Part shown: piece after piece, positions 3,840-11,966 of the stretch | How the letters are laid out: each line of letters begins with the position of its first letter | Numbering within the stretch: position 1 is the stretch's first letter | Assembly (NCBI RefSeq): GCF_002831565.1 | Contig: NZ_CP025096.1 | Span: forward strand, 5,381,391 to 5,405,390 | Length of the DNA: 24,000 nucleotides | Direction: 5' to 3' | Source of the DNA: Spirosoma pollinicola | Lineage (GTDB): Bacteria; Bacteroidota; Bacteroidia; Cytophagales; Spirosomataceae | The notes under the pieces: generated by a model | What the model saw: the letters and a program-made list of their open reading frames with translations, nothing else | The model's database searches: none | What the model was told of the DNA's origin: nothing | Position numbers and translations under genes: made by a program

Positions 3840-5597
3840 ATGAAAACATCGATTATAAAGGGTACGCTCATGGCCAGTATGCTCGCGCTGGTTACGTTCG
3901 CCTGCAACGACAAATTTCTGCAAGTACCGGCTACGGGTCAGTTGGCGAGTGACCAATTAACATCACGAGCCGCGCTGGATGGGCTGTTGATTTCAGCTTA
4001 CTCTCAATTAAATGGCCGGGGCTACGACCAGTCGGCGGCTTCTTTGGATTGGGTACGGGGCGATATGTCGGGGGGGGATGCTAACAAAGGCTCTAACTCC
4101 GGTGACTTTAATGCCCTGACACCTTTTCAAACCTATGTGTCATTGAACGCGACGAATGCCGAGGTTAACTTTAAATGGCGGGCATTGTATGAAGGCATTA
4201 GCCGGGCCAATATGGTGCTTCGACTAATACCCAGTGCGGCATCGGATGTTACGGATGCCGACAAGAAGCGCATCTCGGGCGAAGCTCGTTTTCTGCGGGG
4301 GCATTATTATTTCATGCTAAAACGCCAGTTTAACATGGTTCCTTATGTTGACGAAACTGTCGACTACGGTACGGGCGTTGATAAAGTTCCTAACACAGAA
4401 GATATCTGGGCTAAAATTGAGGCTGATTTCCAATTTGCGCAAACGAATCTTCCTGCTACGCAATCGGCTTCCGGCCGGGCGAATAGCTGGGCGGCAGCAT
4501 CTTATTTAGCCAAGACATACTTGTATGAAAAAAAGTATGCACTGGCTAAAGCGTTGTTTGACCAGATTATTGCCAGCGGAACAACGGCGTCAGGGGTTAA
4601 ATATGCACTGGTTGCCAATTACACCGATATTTTTAATGCGGCCAAGGAAACCAATTCGGAATCTATTTTTGCCGATCAGGCTGCTGCCAACACGGGTAGC
4701 GCAGATAATGCTAACCCAAACCTGAACCTGAACTTCCCTTATAATACGGGTTCAGCAGGTCCGGCAGGTTGCTGCGGATTTTTCCCGCCTACCTTCGAAA
4801 TGGCCAACTCGTTTCGGGTAAATGCCAATGGGTTGCCTTTACTGGATGGCTCGTATAATTCGTCGGCTAATGAGTTAGTGACCGATATGGGCCTAGCCTC
4901 CAGTGCAGCTTTCACACCTGATGCAGGCCCGGTTGATCCACGATTGGATTGGTCAGTTGGTCGTCGGGGTCTTCCTTATTTGGATTGGTCGGTTCACCCA
5001 GGTCAGGACTGGATTCGTGACCAGACATTTGCGGGTCCTTATTCACCTAAAAAGTTCGTTTTTTACAAATCGCAGGATAAAACGCTGACCGATGGTAGTT
5101 CCTGGACGGATGGATACTCGGCTATTAACTACAACTTTATTCGTTATGCCGATGTACTGCTGATGGCTGCCGAATGTGAAGTTGAAGTAGGTAGCTTAGC
5201 CACATCGCTGAACTATGTTAACCTGGTGCGTAATCGCTCTGCAAATTCTGCTTTCTGGGTGAAAACAGCTGCCGGTGCTAATGCAGCTAACTACAAAATT
5301 GCCCCTTACACGGCTTTTGCTGATCAGGCAACTGCCCGGACAGCGATTCAGTTTGAGCGTAAACTGGAACTATCGGGCGAAGGCCACCGGTTCTTTGACC
5401 TTGTTCGTTGGGGTGTAGCCGCTCCGGTGCTGAATGCGTTTATCGCCTACGAAAGCAAAAAACTACCCGTAGCCTATGCCGGTGCTAAATTCACCGCAGG
5501 TCGGGATGAATACCTGCCGATTCCACAAACGCAGATTGATTACCAGGCTACAGACGCCAGCGGTAAGAAAATCCTGACTCAGAATCCAGGTTATTAA
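3840..5597 (+). CDS. SusD/RagB-family nutrient-binding outer-membrane lipoprotein
   Basis: 585-aa ORF with a lipoprotein signal (..LVTFAC, Cys22). SusD-like signatures are present: ARFLRGHYYFML, IRYADVLLMAAE and ERKLELSGEGHRFFDLVRWG. It sits directly after the SusC-like gene. Confidence 0.92.
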   Translation: MKTSIIKGTLMASMLALVTFACNDKFLQVPATGQLASDQLTSRAALDGLLISAYSQLNGRGYDQSAASLDWVRGDMSGGDANKGSNSGDFNALTPFQTYVSLNATNAEVNFKWRALYEGISRANMVLRLIPSAASDVTDADKKRISGEARFLRGHYYFMLKRQFNMVPYVDETVDYGTGVDKVPNTEDIWAKIEADFQFAQTNLPATQSASGRANSWAAASYLAKTYLYEKKYALAKALFDQIIASGTTASGVKYALVANYTDIFNAAKETNSESIFADQAAANTGSADNANPNLNLNFPYNTGSAGPAGCCGFFPPTFEMANSFRVNANGLPLLDGSYNSSANELVTDMGLASSAAFTPDAGPVDPRLDWSVGRRGLPYLDWSVHPGQDWIRDQTFAGPYSPKKFVFYKSQDKTLTDGSSWTDGYSAINYNFIRYADVLLMAAECEVEVGSLATSLNYVNLVRNRSANSAFWVKTAAGANAANYKIAPYTAFADQATARTAIQFERKLELSGEGHRFFDLVRWGVAAPVLNAFIAYESKKLPVAYAGAKFTAGRDEYLPIPQTQIDYQATDASGKKILTQNPGY

Positions 5598-5616
5598 TTT
5601 ACAGGTTACGTATCAT

Positions 5617-5655
5617 AAAAAGTCCCCGATCTCCTGAGCAGATCGGGGACTTTTT
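5617..5655. terminator. Bidirectional rho-independent terminator (aaaa-agtccccgatc-loop-gatcggggact-tttt)
   Basis: An 11-bp GC-rich stem (5621-5631 / 5641-5651) has a 9-nt loop, an A-run upstream and a T-run downstream. It lies between the convergent susD-like gene and the dnaE/TA transcription unit. Confidence 0.8.
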
Positions 5656-5664
5656 ATGTATGGG

Positions 5665-5720
5665 TCATTACGCTACGCCACCTTACAGGTCACACCGTCA
5701 ATCGCTTCCAGTGCCTTCAG
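5665..5720. repeat. Direct repeat, left copy: non-coding duplicate of the dnaE 3' end (last 15 codons, stop and 8 nt)
   Basis: 54 of 56 nt are identical to 6240-6295. The mismatches are at 5688 (g vs a) and 5709 (c vs t). On the minus strand it reads LKALEAIDGVTCKVA-stop, the same as the real dnaE C-terminus. Confidence 0.9.
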
Positions 5721-5737
5721 AAGCAAGAGAGAATTGA

Positions 5738-5965
5738 TTAGGCTGCCTGTAAACGAACAACTTCCAATTCTGCACCTTTTTCCACAGCATCCTGTGCCTG
5801 GGTAAGCAGGCGATTAGTAATTTCAGCGTCAAAATACTTTTCTCCACAATTAGAACAAATACGGGCTGGAACGTCCTTAAAAACGATAATCGCTCCATCC
5901 CGTTCTAAAGTAACGGTTGTCAAGCCAGCCTCAGGCGTGCCAACTTTGCAGGTTAAACAGGTCAT
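5738..5965 (-). CDS. MqsA/YgiT-type zinc-ribbon antitoxin (minimal form, no HTH domain)
   Basis: 75 aa with CxxC at residues 3/6 and 37/40 (MTCLTC...ICSNCGE). Its start overlaps the upstream DUF4258 gene's stop in ATGA. Confidence 0.8.
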   Translation of the reverse strand: MTCLTCKVGTPEAGLTTVTLERDGAIIVFKDVPARICSNCGEKYFDAEITNRLLTQAQDAVEKGAELEVVRLQAA

Positions 5966-6243
5966 CGCTTTTTGGTTTTAAAATCAGCTTCCCAAATAAA
6001 AACGCTTGGTTCGTAAGCAGTTACGATAAAGCACTCTCCTGTTTCATCTTGTGCTACAACAATGTGAATAGGACGGCTGTGTACGAAACCTAAACGTAGA
6101 ACGCTCGGATAAGGTTTATCATTGGGATACTCTGTAATAGTTTCACCTTTATTAATAACCGCATCTACTTCAGGTTGTGTAATGTTACGCTTAAACATCT
6201 GTTCAACTGCATGAAGTCTGTATGTTACTTTTTTGCAATTCAT
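5962..6243 (-). CDS. DUF4258-family toxin-like protein (partner of the YgiT-type antitoxin)
   Basis: 93 aa. I recognise the fold-family pattern (..RLHAVEQMFKRNIT..EV..VI..GE.I..YP.D.PYPS.L.LG....RPIHIVVA......C.IVTAYEP) as DUF4258. The toxin-first order matches mqsR/mqsA. Its ATG lies 4 nt after the dnaE stop. Confidence 0.75.
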   Translation of the reverse strand: MNCKKVTYRLHAVEQMFKRNITQPEVDAVINKGETITEYPNDKPYPSVLRLGFVHSRPIHIVVAQDETGECFIVTAYEPSVFIWEADFKTKKR

Positions 6244-6295
6244 TACGCTACGCCACCTTACAAGTCACACCGTCAATCGCTTCTAGTGCCTTCAG
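6240..6295. repeat. Direct repeat, right copy: the functional dnaE 3' end plus the start codon of the DUF4258 gene
   Basis: See 5665-5720. It covers the dnaE stop (6248-6250), the last 15 dnaE codons and the ATG of the toxin gene (6241-6243). Confidence 0.9.
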
Positions 6296-9200
6296 GAATG
6301 AGTTGGCGGGGGAGACTTTCAACGTTCTTGCCTGCAAACTAACTTCGATTCGCTCGCTGTGATCAATCACATTGAGCGATAGTGTACAACTGCCGGGGTG
6401 GGCATTCACTAACTCGTTAATTCTGGCTACAAGTTGAGCATTCAACGCATCTAAAGTCAGCGATACGCGCAGCTCTTTGCAGAATTTCTCCCGCATATCG
6501 TTCAGTAACCGGATGCTGGTGGGCTTGAACTCTAATTGCTCGGAACCCCATTTGTTCTGAGTTTTGCCCGTAATGTGCAGGAAACGACCCACCTCAATGT
6601 ATTGCACCAGCCTCACATAATCATCGCCGAAAAGGGCCATTTCGAGGGATGAATTATAGTCCTCGACTTTGAAAATACAGAACGGGTTACCGCTTTTAGT
6701 GACCCGCATTTGCACGGCCGATACGATGCAGCCAACCTTGATTTCGGGTTGTTTCGTCTCGAAAATGTTGGCCAGTGTACAGTTGCAGAATCCGTCCATT
6801 TCGAGTTTGAACTCATCGAGCGGGTGTCCCGTGATGTAAAAGCCAACGACGTCCTTCTCGAATTTCAATTTTTCGATCTGGTTCCATTCTGTTACCATAG
6901 GGGCCTTGGGCCGCGCAAGCATCGGCTCCCCATTCATCATGGCGCCAAACAGCGACTGTTGGGCGGCTGCTTTCTCGGCGTGGTAGTTACTGCCGTAGCG
7001 GATAATTTTGTCAAGAAATGGCGAGGTATCGGTGTCCGACATATCGAAATACTGCGCCCGGTGATACTCGTCGATACTATCGAACGCACCGGCGTAAGCC
7101 AGCGATTCCCAGGTTTTCTTGTTCACCGTGCGGAGGTTGACCCGAACTGCAAAATCAAATATATCTTTAAACGGTCCGCCCGCCTTGCGCTCCTCAATGA
7201 TGGCTTCTACGGCGGCATCACCTGCACCTTTAATACCCCCCAGGCCGAAGCGAATTTCGCCCTTTTTGTTAACACCAAAGAAGCGTTCCGACTCGTTTAC
7301 ATCGGGCCCCAGAACGGGAATGTTAATATTCTTACATTCTTCCATGAAGAACGTAATCTTGTCAATCGTACCCAGACAGCTCGTTAATACGGCCGCCATA
7401 TACTCAGGCCGGTAGTGAGCTTTTAGAAAAGCCGTTTGATAGGCAACGAATGCGTAACAGGTTGAGTGCGATTTGTTAAAGGCGTAGGAAGCGAAGGCTT
7501 CCCAATCGGTCCAGACTTTTTCGCATACTTTCAGGGGCAGGTTGTTAGATGCACAGCCATCCATAAACTTACCCTTCATTTTATCCAGCGTGGCTTTGTC
7601 TTTCTTTCCCATCGCCTTTCGCAGTACGTCGGCGTCGCCTTTGGTGAAATTGCCAAGCTTCTGCGAGAGCAGCATCAACTGCTCCTGATAAACCGTAATG
7701 CCATAGGTGTCAGCCAGATACTCTTCCATTTCTGGCATGTCGTACTTGACTTCTTCGCGGCCGTGTTTGCGGTTGATGTAGTTCGGAATGTAAGCAATTG
7801 GACCCGGACGGTAGAGGGCGTTCATGGCAATGAGGTCACCAAAGCGGTCAGGCTTCAGGTCTTTCATGTGCTTTTTCATACCGTCGGATTCAAACTGGAA
7901 AACGGCATTTGTTTCGCCCCGCTGGAAGAGCTTGTAGGTTTCCTCGTCGTCAAGGGGAATATCATCAATGTCGGTTTCGACACCGTTGATCAAAAAGCCG
8001 CCGTGATTTTGCCGGATCAGTCGCAGACATTCCTTAATGATGGTCAGGTTTCGCAGACCCAGAAAGTCCATCTTGATTACACCCGCATCCTCAATAACTT
8101 TCCCCTCATATTGGGTAATAATCAGGTTTGTATCTTTTGAGGTCGACACCGGAACAATGTCCGACAAATCGCTGGGGGCGATGATAATACCGGCTGCATG
8201 AAGGCCGGTATTGCGTACCGTGCCTTCGAGTTTTCGGGCTTGTTTGAGTACGGCAGATACCTTTTCGTAGTCAACGATCCGCATGGCCGCTGCCGCGCTC
8301 TTATCGCCCGATTCGAGTGCCCGCATCCGCTTCACGTTATCCAGTTCTTCGGGCTGGATAACGCTTGCCAAACCGCCCGGCCCATCGAGTGGGTCCTCGA
8401 AAATGCGCTTGAGCGTCATGTTGTATGTCGGCTTGTCGGGCACAAGTTTCACCACGGCGTTGGCATCCTGCAACGGCAAATCCATCACCCGAGCCACGTC
8501 TTTGATCGACGATTTCGACGCCATTGTGCCGTAGGTTACAATCTGCGCTACCTGCGACTTGCCATACTTCTGAACAACGTAATCAATCACTTTCTGCCGG
8601 CCTTCATCGTCGAAGTCCGTATCAATATCGGGCATCGACTTCCGGTCGGGGTTCAGGAACCGCTCGAACAGCAAGTCGTATTTAATGGGGTCAATATTTG
8701 TGATACCCGTGCAATATGCCACCGCGCTACCCGCTGCCGACCCACGGCCCGGCCCAATCATAACACCCAGATCGCGCCCGGCCTTAATGAAGTCGGCTAC
8801 AATAAGGAAGTACCCGGCGAATCCCATTGTCTTGATCGTGAACAGTTCAAAATCAAGGCGTTCCTGAATGTGGGGCAGGATGTCAACGTAGCGTTCTTTA
8901 GCACCCGTGTAGGTCAGGTGGCGCAGGTATTCCCACTGGTTCAGTACGTCGTCGGTATGCTGCTGGAACTCCTGCGGGATAGGGAAGTTGGGAAGCATAA
9001 TATCGCGCTTCAACTTCAGCGTTTCGACCTTGCCAACGATCTCGTTGGTATTGTCGATGGCTTCGGGCAGGTCTTTGAACAGCGTCGTCATCTCCTGCGT
9101 GTTCTTAAAATAGAACTGGTCGCTGAAGAAGGCAAAGCGGGTGTTCTTCGGCATCACATCATCGTCGCTGAAATCCTTCATCGACGGCGTGCTTTGCTTT

Positions 9201-9883
9201 TCGTTGGTGTTCACGCACAGCAGAATATCATGCGCTACCCAGTCGTCCTGATCGACATAGTGCGAATCGTTGGACGCGATGATCTTAACGTTGTATTTCC
9301 GGGCGAACTTGATCAGAATTTCATTGGCTTTAATCTGATCGGGAATTTCATGGCGTTGAAGTTCAACGTAATAATCTTCGCCGAAGCGGTCGAGCCACCA
9401 TTTGAATTCAATTTCGCCCGCAGCTTCGCCTTTTTTCAGAATGGTTTTTGGAACGGAGGCACCAATGCAGCAAGTAGAGGCAATCAGCCCTTCTTTATAC
9501 TTATCAATCAGCTCTTTGGTAACGCGGGGATATTTACCATAAAGCCCCTCCATGTAGCCCAATGAACACAGTTTTGCCAGATTTTTATAGCCCTGCGCGT
9601 TTTTGGCTAACAAAAGCTGGTGGTATCGAACGTCTTTTTTCTCTTTTGTGAACTGTTTGATCGTATGATCTTCCACCACATAGAACTCGCAGCCGACAAT
9701 GGGTTTGATGCCCTGCTTACTGGCTTCGGCCACAAATTCGAACACGCCGAACATATTACCGTGATCGGTAATGGCAACGGCGGGCATATTATCAGCTTTC
9801 GCCTTCTTGATCAGCTTCTTAATATCGGCCTGACCGTCGAGCAGCGAGTATTGGGTATGGCAGTGGAGGTGAGAGAATTGCAT
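6248..9883 (-). CDS. dnaE: DNA polymerase III alpha subunit
   Basis: 1211 aa. It has an N-terminal PHP domain (FSHLHCHTQYSLLDG), a polymerase core (GPGRGSAAGSAVAYCTGITNIDP; MPDIDTDF), the HhH region and a C-terminal OB fold. Confidence 0.97.
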   Translation of the reverse strand: MQFSHLHCHTQYSLLDGQADIKKLIKKAKADNMPAVAITDHGNMFGVFEFVAEASKQGIKPIVGCEFYVVEDHTIKQFTKEKKDVRYHQLLLAKNAQGYKNLAKLCSLGYMEGLYGKYPRVTKELIDKYKEGLIASTCCIGASVPKTILKKGEAAGEIEFKWWLDRFGEDYYVELQRHEIPDQIKANEILIKFARKYNVKIIASNDSHYVDQDDWVAHDILLCVNTNEKQSTPSMKDFSDDDVMPKNTRFAFFSDQFYFKNTQEMTTLFKDLPEAIDNTNEIVGKVETLKLKRDIMLPNFPIPQEFQQHTDDVLNQWEYLRHLTYTGAKERYVDILPHIQERLDFELFTIKTMGFAGYFLIVADFIKAGRDLGVMIGPGRGSAAGSAVAYCTGITNIDPIKYDLLFERFLNPDRKSMPDIDTDFDDEGRQKVIDYVVQKYGKSQVAQIVTYGTMASKSSIKDVARVMDLPLQDANAVVKLVPDKPTYNMTLKRIFEDPLDGPGGLASVIQPEELDNVKRMRALESGDKSAAAAMRIVDYEKVSAVLKQARKLEGTVRNTGLHAAGIIIAPSDLSDIVPVSTSKDTNLIITQYEGKVIEDAGVIKMDFLGLRNLTIIKECLRLIRQNHGGFLINGVETDIDDIPLDDEETYKLFQRGETNAVFQFESDGMKKHMKDLKPDRFGDLIAMNALYRPGPIAYIPNYINRKHGREEVKYDMPEMEEYLADTYGITVYQEQLMLLSQKLGNFTKGDADVLRKAMGKKDKATLDKMKGKFMDGCASNNLPLKVCEKVWTDWEAFASYAFNKSHSTCYAFVAYQTAFLKAHYRPEYMAAVLTSCLGTIDKITFFMEECKNINIPVLGPDVNESERFFGVNKKGEIRFGLGGIKGAGDAAVEAIIEERKAGGPFKDIFDFAVRVNLRTVNKKTWESLAYAGAFDSIDEYHRAQYFDMSDTDTSPFLDKIIRYGSNYHAEKAAAQQSLFGAMMNGEPMLARPKAPMVTEWNQIEKLKFEKDVVGFYITGHPLDEFKLEMDGFCNCTLANIFETKQPEIKVGCIVSAVQMRVTKSGNPFCIFKVEDYNSSLEMALFGDDYVRLVQYIEVGRFLHITGKTQNKWGSEQLEFKPTSIRLLNDMREKFCKELRVSLTLDALNAQLVARINELVNAHPGSCTLSLNVIDHSERIEVSLQARTLKVSPANSFLKALEAIDGVTCKVA

Positions 9884-10060: not shown

Positions 10061-10675
10061 CTAGACTAATTCTTTAACGGCCTGTAAAATGCGTTGTTTT
10101 ACCTCAGGCCACCCTATATCATTGAGCGTTATTGGGTCAAGTTGACTATCTGCGTCCTCAAAATAGGTTAAGGAACGAACCACGTAACCGGGGTCACTAT
10201 TGGCGTATTTAGTTGTAAAGAACTGGAGCATTTGCTGGAGCGAAAAATGGTTAAGTAACTCAGTAATGTCCCAAAAATCTTTCTTTGCCCCTCGTCCGCT
10301 AACCGCTCCAAGCTTCATCGCGATAACGTCTTCAATTGACCAGAATCGGATGCCGGCCTCTTCAATAAAAGGACTAATTAACGGGTAACGATGGGCTAAC
10401 AAATCGACTTTAACCCCTTCAATAAATAAACTGAGGGTATTTCTTGCTTCGTCTGTTTTGATTGTCGTTGGAAAATTAAGGAGCAGTTCGTCAAATAGCT
10501 CTTGCTCGGAAAATGATTGATTCGTGAATAAATCCAGATCGACCGATAAGCGATGCCCAAACTGTAAAGCAAGGCTTGTACCACCTGCCAGGGCGAATGA
10601 CTTAAGAATTGGCTGTTGCATAAGCCGTTTCAATAATTCCAGGGTAGCGGGTTCGACTGTTGACGGGTGTAGCAT
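10061..10675 (-). CDS. AbiEii/AbiGii-type (DUF1814) nucleotidyltransferase toxin-family protein, short form
   Basis: 204 aa with the NTase-fold motif G31-G32-T33..(12 aa)..D46-L-D48 (LAGGTSLALQFGHRLSVDLDLF). It overlaps the upstream gene by 46 nt. An alternative start at M19 would reduce the overlap to 10 nt. Confidence 0.8.
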   Translation of the reverse strand: MLHPSTVEPATLELLKRLMQQPILKSFALAGGTSLALQFGHRLSVDLDLFTNQSFSEQELFDELLLNFPTTIKTDEARNTLSLFIEGVKVDLLAHRYPLISPFIEEAGIRFWSIEDVIAMKLGAVSGRGAKKDFWDITELLNHFSLQQMLQFFTTKYANSDPGYVVRSLTYFEDADSQLDPITLNDIGWPEVKQRILQAVKELV

Positions 10676-10929
10676 CGAAACTGATTGGGAGTGAGATCAA
10701 AGATAGCGCAGCAGAATGAGAGCGTTTTCTTTTTGAGGTAAGCTGCCTGAACAACCTCCGCTTTCACACGTTCGCGGCCATAATACCGAACTACTTCCAG
10801 TATATCGGCCCACAAACCATAGTTCATTACTTTCTCAATCACGAAGCGGGCGTTGGTTTCGTAATCTATCGCTGCCATGTTTATGTCCCAGAAGGCTGTG
10901 GGGGAGAGGTGTGGTTTGGGCGCTGTCAT
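10630..10929 (-). CDS. Small conserved partner of the AbiEii-type NTase (putative antitoxin; DUF6922-like from memory, unverified)
   Basis: 99 aa with an ATG start that overlaps the upstream ORF's stop in ATGA. The pattern FWD...(I)DYE.N..FVIEKV.NYG...D...V..YYG...V is one I recall upstream of Bacteroidota AbiEii genes. Confidence 0.65.
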   Translation of the reverse strand: MTAPKPHLSPTAFWDINMAAIDYETNARFVIEKVMNYGLWADILEVVRYYGRERVKAEVVQAAYLKKKTLSFCCAIFDLTPNQFRCYTRQQSNPLPWNY

Positions 10930-11201
10930 TGTAGAAATGCTGTATCTAAAATGTGCTGCGCTTTTTTTAGGTTTTCTAGTGTTGCGTCAAAGTCAAGTTT
11001 TCCTTCCTTCACTTCTCGATAGTTACCTTTCCAGCGTGAGACTGTCATGTATCGTCCATTACCCATTCTAGCTGGCCGCTTTATTTCCAAGCCTAATTGT
11101 TCACTTGCTTTTGCTAGTTTATTGTAAGCATCAAGACGGTACTCTTGACGTTTGAGTTCATCTATTACTTCGATTTTGAAGCACAGTTCCTGATTTTCCA
11201 A
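10926..11201 (-). CDS. Hypothetical 91-aa protein (orphan; predicted helical N-terminal half)
   Basis: The ORF lies in the same operon, 21 nt after the nuclease gene's stop. The annotated start is TTG (caa at 11199-11201 on +). The first in-frame ATG would give only 46 aa. I recognise no family. Confidence 0.5.
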   Translation of the reverse strand: MENQELCFKIEVIDELKRQEYRLDAYNKLAKASEQLGLEIKRPARMGNGRYMTVSRWKGNYREVKEGKLDFDATLENLKKAQHILDTAFLQ

Positions 11202-11222
11202 CTGAAGATACGGTTTATATGC

Positions 11223-11966
11223 CTAATCAGGTAATTCTATGAAATACCACCAGAAGCCGAAAAATCCGCCTGCTGGGTTGGCAATGTAACTCCAATTTGC
11301 CCCGTCATCTTGGGTAATAGTATAGAGTTGATCTCGGTTATCATATATCCTTAAGAAGAAACCTCGCCAGTCGTTGTCGCTCCATAAAGACTTACCCGAT
11401 TCATCAAATAAGTTTGTTTTCTCATATTGGTTGACCACATATTCCATTCCTTCCAAGTGGTCTAGGAAATCTCGATAAATATTATTTGCTGTAGATTCTC
11501 CCCGCAAAAATTGCAGGAAATCTTTACGCAAATAGGTTTTGTATCGACCTACGTCAAACTTTGACTGATAGCCGGTTTTAAAATAGATTGGTACAATTTG
11601 GTCTTCTGTATACTCCTTCAATATATTACTGTAGTACCGATCAAGTTGGCCTGAGTGATGATCTGTGTGAGTTTTGTCTTCAATTAAAATAGCTAGTTGA
11701 TTAGCTTCTTTTGCATTGATCTCAATTAATACGTCAAGTTTTTCCACTTGTCGGCGCACTTTTACAGTTTGAACACTTTCCATGGCGTAATCAGGCTTAT
11801 GCTTATGAACGAGTGACAGTAGAAATTTACGAGATATTTGATGTAACTCAGCATCAGCTAGTGTTGGATCAGCCCAAGCGGCCAGCCAACAGATAAAGGC
11901 ATCTTGTGATAACTCGCTGGTTGCGTAATGAAATAAATTCGGTTGGTGTGGTTTTTCGGTTTCCAT
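11223..11966 (-). CDS. PD-(D/E)XK nuclease superfamily protein (PDDEXK_4-like)
   Basis: 247 aa. An N-terminal helix (ATSELSQDAFICWL, E18) is followed by the core D78 (LDVLIEI) and E96-D-K98 (LAILIEDKTH), then HSGQLDRYY. The Trp/Gly-rich C-terminus (GGFFGFWWY) is typical of this family as I recall it. Confidence 0.8.
   Translation of the reverse strand: METEKPHQPNLFHYATSELSQDAFICWLAAWADPTLADAELHQISRKFLLSLVHKHKPDYAMESVQTVKVRRQVEKLDVLIEINAKEANQLAILIEDKTHTDHHSGQLDRYYSNILKEYTEDQIVPIYFKTGYQSKFDVGRYKTYLRKDFLQFLRGESTANNIYRDFLDHLEGMEYVVNQYEKTNLFDESGKSLWSDNDWRGFFLRIYDNRDQLYTITQDDGANWSYIANPAGGFFGFWWYFIELPD

Follow-up and report, generated by a model that had tools for sequence, protein, structure and literature searches.

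A repeat-flanked cassette site at the 3' end of dnaE in Spirosoma pollinicola and its relatives

Insertion into the 3' end of a gene, with the end of that gene regenerated by the incoming DNA, is classic behaviour of genomic islands that carry an integrase. Here we describe a locus of this general architecture in a 24-kb stretch of the Spirosoma pollinicola genome (called the window below; the analysis of this genome was confined to it), where a putative toxin-antitoxin (TA) gene pair follows the stop codon of dnaE, the gene for the alpha subunit of DNA polymerase III, and has a copy of the dnaE 3' end on either side. The locus shares several features with 3'-end genomic islands, integrative and conjugative elements (ICEs) as well as their derivatives without an integrase, the cis-mobilizable elements, namely flanking direct repeats of which one is the functional gene end, empty sites with a single copy in relatives and, in one genome, a tandem remnant. 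Unlike islands and ICEs, it comes with no integrase that could be found, the length and left boundary of its repeats vary, the insert is only ~520 nucleotides (nt) long and tightly packed, and the differences between the two repeat copies follow codons.

The TA-only islets of Photorhabdus (PMC13617665) are lone type II TA pairs between core genes, without mobile-element genes and patchily present. The dnaE cassette likewise is a lone TA pair between conserved genes, patchy among relatives, with eroded toxins in some lineages (loci L008, L009, L020 and L032) and a mosaic flank in one contig (L100). It differs from the islets in lying inside the 3' end of an essential gene and carrying a duplicate of that end, in starting 0-9 nt from the host stop codon, apparently without a promoter or a helix-turn-helix (HTH) regulator of its own, and in using a site that holds unrelated cargoes and whose downstream flank need not be conserved. 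Displaced old 3' ends are also known from type VI secretion system (T6SS), Rhs and contact-dependent inhibition (CDI) loci, for which the suggested route is homology-facilitated illegitimate recombination (PMC5361080). As in those arrays, a module arriving at dnaE would bring a new 3' end and leave the old one downstream, homology in the conserved upstream gene would anchor the event, and recombination between copies could re-assort modules. However, the swapped 3' ends of the T6SS, Rhs and CDI loci encode different toxin domains, whereas the two dnaE tails encode the same or nearly the same C-terminus and the payload is a separate gene pair.

The gene pair itself resembles the MqsR/MqsA and DUF4258-MqsA modules (PMC11980606) in its toxin-first order, zinc-ribbon antitoxin, 4-nt overlap and BECR-fold DUF4258 toxin, and departs from them in that its antitoxin lacks the C-terminal HTH domain of MqsA and that, because the pair abuts dnaE, there is no separate promoter region. 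The repeat is a coding gene end on a chromosome with no sign of an Xer-type site, which distinguishes it from the boundaries of pdif modules. The latter, many of which are TA pairs without a recombinase, are delimited on plasmids by short repeats that serve as XerC/D recombination sites. Small accessory modules shuffled between Acinetobacter plasmids are described in PMC13141974. What is new at dnaE is the combination of an essential replicase gene, a compact, apparently promoterless cargo and no detectable integrase, together with the coding-like behaviour of a short duplicated tail and the presence of at least three unrelated cargoes at one repeat-flanked site that recurs across a bacterial family.

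A gene pair between two copies of the dnaE tail

The features of the window that make up the site are the following, from dnaE downstream (aa, amino acids; ORF, open reading frame):

6248-9883, minus strand: dnaE, DNA polymerase III alpha (1211 aa), from the ORF list, translation and Pfam; stop codon TAG at 6248-6250
6240-6295, minus strand: proximal tail repeat (P), the functional last 15 dnaE codons and stop (6248-6295), then 8 nt reaching into the toxin ATG
5962-6243, minus strand: DUF4258 toxin gene (93 aa, RelE/ParE-fold family), ATG at 6241-6243, 4 nt past the dnaE stop
5738-5965, minus strand: YgiT/MqsA-type zinc-ribbon antitoxin gene (75 aa, TIGR03831), without HTH
5721-5737, minus strand: 17-nt spacer from the antitoxin stop to D, possibly the decayed left part of the displaced copy
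5665-5720, minus strand: displaced tail repeat (D), which duplicates the last 15 dnaE codons without being translated, has its TAG in register at 5673-5675 and includes 8 nt more
5614-5658, no strand assigned: bidirectional intrinsic terminator hairpin, common to the dnaE-TA unit and the convergent susD gene
3840-5597, plus strand: susD-family gene (Pfam SusD_RagB and SusD-like_3), convergent with dnaE and marking the native downstream context; it follows dnaE also in L006 and L013

The DnaE protein contains the PHP, DNA_pol3_alpha, finger, HHH_6 and OB domains, which is the full set of a polymerase III alpha subunit. Repeat finding returned P and D as a single 56-nt direct repeat with 54 of 56 positions identical (96%) and a spacing of 575 nt. 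When the 56-mer was searched against the 24 kb with up to three mismatches, only P and D were recovered, and none of 100 shuffled sequences gave any match; within the window the repeat is thus not a member of a generic family. The two mismatches (CTA/CTG, Leu; ACT/ACC, Thr) are both synonymous and at third codon positions, and the guanine-plus-cytosine content is 39-43.5% in the cassette compared to 47-50% in the flanks. All this agrees with an earlier note made from the letters of this stretch alone, which had described the repeat and its identity, the content of the right copy (the last 15 codons, the stop and 8 nt including the toxin ATG), the 4 nt between the dnaE stop and that ATG, the nature of the mismatches and the lower guanine-plus-cytosine content. 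The note had also placed the left copy next to a shared bidirectional terminator, which is correct, at a distance of 9 nt, which is not: the extended hairpin arms end at 5658, so that D lies 6 nt away.

The terminator is an inverted repeat with 22-nt arms that are 95% complementary; it was positive in a terminator scan and has a fold z-score of -5.2. Equivalent hairpins are present at the same place in L006 and L013, and the spacer from stop codon to terminator measures 14 nt both on the D side of the window and in L006. In terms of annotation, the second, short 'dnaE end' is a displaced gene tail and not noise. The repeat runs 8 nt beyond the dnaE stop (cgtaATGA; 5665-5672 and 6240-6247), so that the toxin start codon is found in both copies; this extension could be what is left of a second tandem cassette that was deleted, as in S. 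koreense (see below).

No recombinase domain was found among the 21 window ORFs scanned, in line with the earlier note's remark that there is no integrase here, and at other loci those ORFs next downstream of dnaE that were either read or scanned are ordinary genes and not recombinases. Likewise, no integrase-bearing element was noticed at 80 related dnaE loci, whose downstream ORFs were not systematically scanned. Several other element classes were considered and rejected. The cassette does not look like a transposon or insertion sequence, as its ends have no inverted repeats (the hairpin lies outside), no transposase was found and the duplication varies from 30 to 84 nt. A diversity-generating retroelement is contradicted by the lack of a reverse transcriptase domain in the window ORFs scanned and by differences that are synonymous, involve all base types and are not adenine-specific. 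As to a phage or plasmid carrier, the toxin homologues included no viral match and their plasmid representatives are just 33-43% identical; homologues of only ~50% identity do not adjoin dnaE. Finally, translation of D by frameshift or read-through as an extension of the antitoxin was rejected since D is in phase 2, 1 or 0 depending on the locus and the linkers of L004 and L009 show no conservation. In seven loci, the reading frame of D does stay open as far back as the antitoxin gene.

Recurrence of the site, empty sites and divergence of the tail copies

The comparison covered 80 related dnaE loci from Spirosomataceae genomes. The earlier note had raised the possibility that DUF4258/YgiT pairs abut dnaE in other genomes, and such pairs were found directly after dnaE in 14 distinct genomes or contigs, including those of S. 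terrae, S. koreense, S. fluviale and S. utsteinense. Six of the 80 related loci carry the pair, and a scan of metagenomes for more copies added one further dnaE-linked locus (L096). Twelve of the 14 TA loci have a repeat of the dnaE tail behind the antitoxin, starting 2-20 nt past its stop codon, with a length of 30-84 nt and an identity of 75-100%; the two loci without repeat are L008 and L085. Two further loci retain the antitoxin alone (L032) or the antitoxin with a toxin remnant (L020). The TA genes are 67-82% identical between species and the kinase cassettes described below 66-70%. The cargo lineages are old. A recent, private insertion by an integrase-type element is not supported. The dnaE-TA linkage is genus-wide, and between species the TA genes have diverged about as far as dnaE has.

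Other cargoes occupy the same position. A 240-aa Kinase-PolyVal gene (PF18762, 6e-37), for which PADLOC gave no match, follows the dnaE stop intact in Spirosoma sp. KNUC1025 (L024, 7394-8116) and as a pseudogene broken by frameshifts in L007 (7394-8124) and L042 (7393-8114), one of these two genomes being from a different genus-level lineage. The kinase cargo is followed by a tail repeat of 32-45 nt that is 91-100% identical. The cargo of S. endophyticum (L046) is a 163-aa ORF in opposite orientation, after which comes a 53-nt tail copy with 79% identity as aligned (76% over 45 in-register sites). Thus, at least three unrelated cargoes share the same repeat-flanked site, with 2-25 nt between cargo stop and D, and two different ones are found among L004, L009 and L007, which are close relatives of one another. 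In three Larkinella genomes (L058, 7370-8022; L061; L063), a pair encoding an MntA-like nucleotidyltransferase and HepT (type VII TA) lies 13-16 nt past the dnaE stop, with no dnaE-tail repeat in any of the three. One Fibrisoma genome has a DUF6932 gene after dnaE. A lipoprotein-like gene on the opposite strand was also seen in L058 and L060.

Sites without the cassette show what D is. The earlier note had predicted that an empty site would consist of a single repeat copy followed directly by the terminator, and this arrangement is found in a metagenome-assembled genome (L006) and in S. telluris (L013), which have the same order of dnaE, terminator and convergent susD, one tail copy and no TA pair. 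No second tail copy was present in the downstream DNA examined of relatives lacking the cassette, so that neither this nor a generic repeat family in the window, two patterns which the earlier note had named as speaking against its reading, was seen. In an alignment, the window sequence that runs from D through the spacer and the hairpin to the end of susD lines up collinearly with the functional dnaE end of L006 and L013. That the cassette and one repeat copy were inserted into the dnaE 3' end, with DnaE left intact, is supported. The closest relatives of S. pollinicola are without the TA pair.

The ancestral arrangement in the family is dnaE, 72-95 nt and trx. At every locus with this context, D and its stop codon run directly into the conserved dnaE-trx intergenic sequence 'tcggaactaa...gaaaacggtttatg...', and the same sequence follows the functional dnaE stop at empty sites. 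In S. terrae (L002), D adjoins a convergent 152-aa gene, as does the functional stop in the TA-less locus L033, where the product is 50% identical; in the window, D adjoins the susD-side terminator, as does the functional dnaE end in L006 and L013. D is the displaced native dnaE end and always adjoins the genome's own downstream DNA. The stop codon and the nucleotides following P, on the other hand, go with the cargo (TGATG with the TA pair in L004 and L009; 'TAAtttgca' with the kinase gene). The ~72-nt dnaE-trx spacer (e.g. 7354-7425 in L005) is itself unusually conserved in Spirosoma: only 1-2 of 70 nt differ among L004, L007 and L009, compared to ~30% at dnaE four-fold sites, which suggests either a constrained trx promoter or leader or a recent exchange of the trx side.

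Both tail copies look like coding DNA. The earlier note had called its synonymous-only pattern statistically weak on two differences, but over the 14 P/D pairs tabulated (684 sites; the D copies of L003 and L096, with a 1-nt indel each, were left out) it is very strong. The 73 nucleotide differences fall on codon positions 1, 2 and 3 in the proportion 12/6/55 (binomial p=2.5e-13), and 47 of the differing codons are synonymous and 18 are not, against a random expectation of 26% synonymous (p=4e-15). None of these 14 pairs contains an indel, all 14 D copies keep an in-register stop, which differs from the stop of P in 6 of them, and even the pairs of only 75-84% identity (L089, L098 and L099) still encode an intact DnaE-like C-terminus. 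The indels of L003 and L096 indicate that decay of D does occur. The right end of the repeat always coincides with the stop codon (0 to +8 nt past it), and the left end lies between -30 and -84, where decay of the left part is indistinguishable from different junctions. Several loci share the motif 'aattcyyt' after the antitoxin stop. Selection of D as part of the trx promoter was considered and rejected, as D is well kept in loci without trx (the window, L002, L089 and L098) and the codon-position bias would remain unexplained.

Homologous recombination and other possible routes to the site

One contig is a recombinant mosaic. From -960 to about -150, the dnaE sequence of L100 resembles that of L085 (82-93% identical). 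Its last ~120 nt of dnaE (86-88%) and its TA pair (87.9% vs 70.5%) are like those of S. fluviale (L011), and its D, intergenic region and trx are 97-100% identical to those of L011, although the dnaE four-fold sites of the two genomes differ by 48%. The breakpoint lies ~150 nt before the dnaE stop. Homologous recombination has therefore moved the dnaE tail together with the cargo, and the tail and TA pair of L100 are of different ancestry from the rest of its dnaE, which accords with the earlier suggestion that one of the tail copies had evolved as a real dnaE end in another lineage. In the genome of the window, where no relative is closer than ~85% nucleotide identity, no mosaic was resolvable in dnaE.

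Further comparisons bear on exchange between the two copies. At the sites that distinguish the orthologous D copies of L011 and L100, each copy agrees with the P of its own genome (6 of 6 and 4 of 6 sites, respectively), while the two genomes have the same 14-nt spacer before D and are 97-100% identical beyond D, with complete identity over >100 nt. We take these as signs of P-to-D conversion; the D copies of L004 and L009 show no preferential match to their own P. In S. koreense (L003, 6507-6632), D is followed by ~70 nt of the 5' end of a second toxin gene, with ATG changed to ATA and 84.7% identity to the first unit, and then by ~115 nt of unassigned sequence before the trx intergenic region. 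This looks like a tandem remnant, which an unequal exchange between P and D would produce.

These observations may be explained if the dnaE stop in Spirosoma and its relatives is a cassette site that works without an integrase, by homologous recombination, an explanation that we consider about evenly balanced between being right and wrong. A cargo within the last 16 dnaE codons would bring a replacement tail, P, so that DnaE stays intact, and would push the former tail, D, and its stop downstream, where D stays joined to the native terminator. Because dnaE homology flanks the cargo on both sides, a linear fragment (dnaE...P-cargo-D) could replace the dnaE end of a related genome by double crossover, with dnaE as the left arm and D, pairing with the functional tail of the recipient, as the right arm. 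Gain would then be independent of the downstream context, and the right part of D would be renewed from the functional tail. A crossover between P and D would remove the cassette precisely, an unequal one would duplicate it in tandem, and gene conversion between them would keep the copies alike. Under this model D is expected to be joined to native DNA, P and D to differ like two working alleles and the part of D near the cargo to be decayed and variable in length, with no integrase needed. Addiction to the TA pair would counter-select loss of the cassette, which might be why this pair is the commonest cargo. As support we count a proposal, published in 2026, that TA-only islets spread through homologous recombination at the core genes on their flanks (PMC13617665). 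If the explanation is correct, a TA pair could fix itself to an essential gene and spread within a family without a dedicated recombinase, a ~50-nt copy of the host gene end being sufficient, much as in a laboratory knock-in construct. The signature (a duplicated tail, synonymous differences and a retained stop codon) can be searched for at other essential genes, and the locus would lend itself to testing whether the transcript of the replicase gene serves to express a selfish or defensive module.

An extension of this explanation, which we regard as possible rather than probable, is that the displaced tail is a working portable homology arm of 30-85 nt and no passive scar. It would belong to a self-targeting, integrase-free cassette whose cargo, of whatever kind, could enter behind dnaE in any related genome irrespective of the downstream context, would be expressed from the replicase transcript and would be guarded by addiction against loss through exchange between the repeats. 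The arm would evolve like coding DNA because repeated passage through functional tails would keep it fresh.

Several points weigh against recombination as the driving process. All comparisons are between species, and no excision, integration, conversion or circle was seen, nor a presence/absence pair at the strain level. Apart from the L100 mosaic, no recent transfer of the TA genes was shown, given their 67-82% identity between species. P and D are nearer to each other than to any sampled tail in roughly 8 of 11 genomes, which old vertical inheritance combined with gene conversion explains equally well. The left boundary of D, varying from -30 to -84, does not tell crossover points, junctions and later deletions apart. 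The 8-nt extension with the toxin ATG in the window is predicted neither by a simple double crossover nor by any simple integration model and requires an additional step of tandem duplication and deletion. No model explains how the first P-cargo-D structure arose. In addition, recombination on arms of 30-85 nt is inefficient in the model bacteria in which it has been measured.

The mutual nearness of P and D also speaks for another account, in which there was one ancient insertion (of the TA pair, and of the kinase separately) with duplication of a tail of ~50-100 nt, followed by vertical descent and many precise losses and without any horizontal movement. D would be kept near P solely by conversion within the genome, and selection against harmful D-to-P conversions would make it coding-like. 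This would suit the TA and kinase cargoes, which between lineages are as diverged as dnaE or more so, the lineage-specific repeats of 89-100% identity around even the pseudogenised kinase cassettes, the common 'aattcyyt' motif, and the D copies of L011 and L100, which follow their own P within a nearly identical surrounding. However, conversion that frequent should have homogenised the pairs of L089, L098 and L099, which have remained at 75-84% identity with mostly synonymous differences and no indels, and in L004 and L009 D does not preferentially match its own P. Together with the cross-lineage mosaic of L100 and the two different cargoes within the close trio of L004, L009 and L007, this makes the account rather unlikely in our view. 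Two further tests do not help to decide. The correlation between TA and dnaE distances is weak (Spearman 0.30, p=0.049) and, with both genes near saturation, uninformative on vertical descent. Orthologous D copies were also tested for evolution slower than neutral. They differ at 2/54, 3/48 and 5/48 sites against 0.28-0.33 at dnaE four-fold sites, and at 5/51 against 0.48, which is a strong contrast, but this yardstick was not relied on, as it is unsafe: the genealogy of the sequence beyond D is far younger, with a four-fold divergence of 0.04-0.14 in trx and 97-100% identity between L011 and L100.

Homologous recombination would appear to fit the sequences better than site-specific integration, in which the repeats would be attL and attR of an element that is either a cis-mobilizable remnant or a satellite moved by an integrase encoded elsewhere. 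The architecture, with direct repeats, one of them in the gene, and single-copy empty sites, is indeed that of classic 3'-end insertion, and the tandem remnant of L003 resembles accretion. The Pfam family Kinase-PolyVal moreover takes its name from the polyvalent proteins in which it occurs; such proteins are typical of phages and conjugative elements. Yet the repeats are 30-84 nt long with different left ends and no apparent fixed core, the cassettes are so compact (2-25 nt from cargo stop to D) that a deletion remnant is unlikely, the toxin has neither a viral nor a close plasmid match, and the searches for an integrase described above were negative, so that we hold this route to be quite improbable. 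Independent acquisitions by homology-facilitated illegitimate recombination, with dnaE as the anchor and the far end joining inside the recipient tail at a new junction each time, appear very improbable, even though they would account for the variable left boundaries of D, its contiguity with native DNA in several contexts and the donor-versus-recipient look of the P/D differences. The repeat-less TA loci (L008 and L085) and the Larkinella MntA/HepT pairs could then be source states, and the same mechanism has been proposed for the displaced 3' ends of T6SS and Rhs arrays (PMC5361080). However, all junctions fall in the last 30-84 nt of dnaE and 2-25 nt past the cargo stop, which is tighter than expected for random joins, junction spacers are common to diverged genomes (L004/L009 and L011/L100), and events of this kind occur rarely in the systems examined by experiment (PMC5361080).

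The gene pair, its expression and the upstream side of dnaE

The toxin matches PF14076 (DUF4258) with 75.8 bits (cut-off 25; 3e-21) over 69 of 71 profile positions, and the antitoxin matches TIGR03831 (YgiT_finger) with 48.2 bits (cut-off 20.2; 9e-13). The toxin protein is 100% identical to the NCBI entry from S. pollinicola. DUF4258 is listed among the BECR-fold (RelE/ParE) type II toxins, with its activity given as unknown (PMC11980606). The two ORFs overlap by 4 nt (5962-5965), and the adjacent pair is kept in the 14 genomes or contigs. Compared to MqsA, the antitoxin aligns with positions 1-60 of 131 in PF15731, below the cut-off, and 1-62 of 127 in TIGR03830 (27.5 vs 61.8 bits). As the match is confined to the N-terminal 60 positions, the protein lacks the C-terminal HTH DNA-binding domain and is not a full member of the MqsA family. 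Judged by these profile matches, the pair is a putative type II TA system composed of a DUF4258 toxin and a YgiT antitoxin that consists of the zinc ribbon only.

In the TA loci examined, the toxin gene starts 0-9 nt past the dnaE stop, with a TGATG overlap in L004 and L009. A promoter scan found no sigma-70-like site for the pair, and no Bacteroidetes -7 motif (TAnnTTTG) is present on the minus strand of 6248-7155, the last ~900 nt of dnaE. The tight and conserved spacing, the lack of a promoter motif and the antitoxin without HTH are all consistent with a promoterless pair that would be expressed by read-through from dnaE.

Where the pair is eroded, the toxin is lost or broken and the antitoxin intact (L032, 7360-7587; L020, 3691-3836; L009, 3204-3481; L008, 7358-7582). 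The toxin is frameshifted in L009, truncated in S. utsteinense (L008) and reduced to a remnant beside the antitoxin in L020, and Fibrisoma limi (L032) has an orphan antitoxin. Loss of the toxin first is the expected order of TA erosion.

The C-terminus of the antitoxin (ELEVVRLQAA) resembles a DnaE segment (RIEVSLQAR) just upstream of the duplicated tail (5738-5780 vs 6328-6345; codons ~-96 to -81). A derivation of the former (EVVRLQAA) from the latter (EVSLQAR) was considered, with 13 of 15 nt matching and z=3.6 in the window, but most other loci gave no significant likeness. A homologue unlinked to dnaE already ends in VEFEVI. The likeness is probably due to chance or to microhomology at the junction.

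Small TA or defence genes have a second hot spot on the 5' side of dnaE (10061-11966 in the window, minus strand), with the following features:

10061-10675, minus strand: AbiEii
10630-10929, minus strand: DUF6922
within 10061-11966, minus strand: a 91-aa ORF
11223-11966, minus strand: PD-(D/E)XK nuclease resembling the PADLOC candidate PDC-S26

At other Spirosoma dnaE loci, the upstream side (L001, 1277-2193; L003, 2236-2361; L004, 764-2246) holds a PIN gene, a ParE fragment, DUF4160/DUF2442 or AbiEii with DUF6922. With such genes both upstream and downstream, dnaE is thus bracketed by TA and defence modules on both sides.

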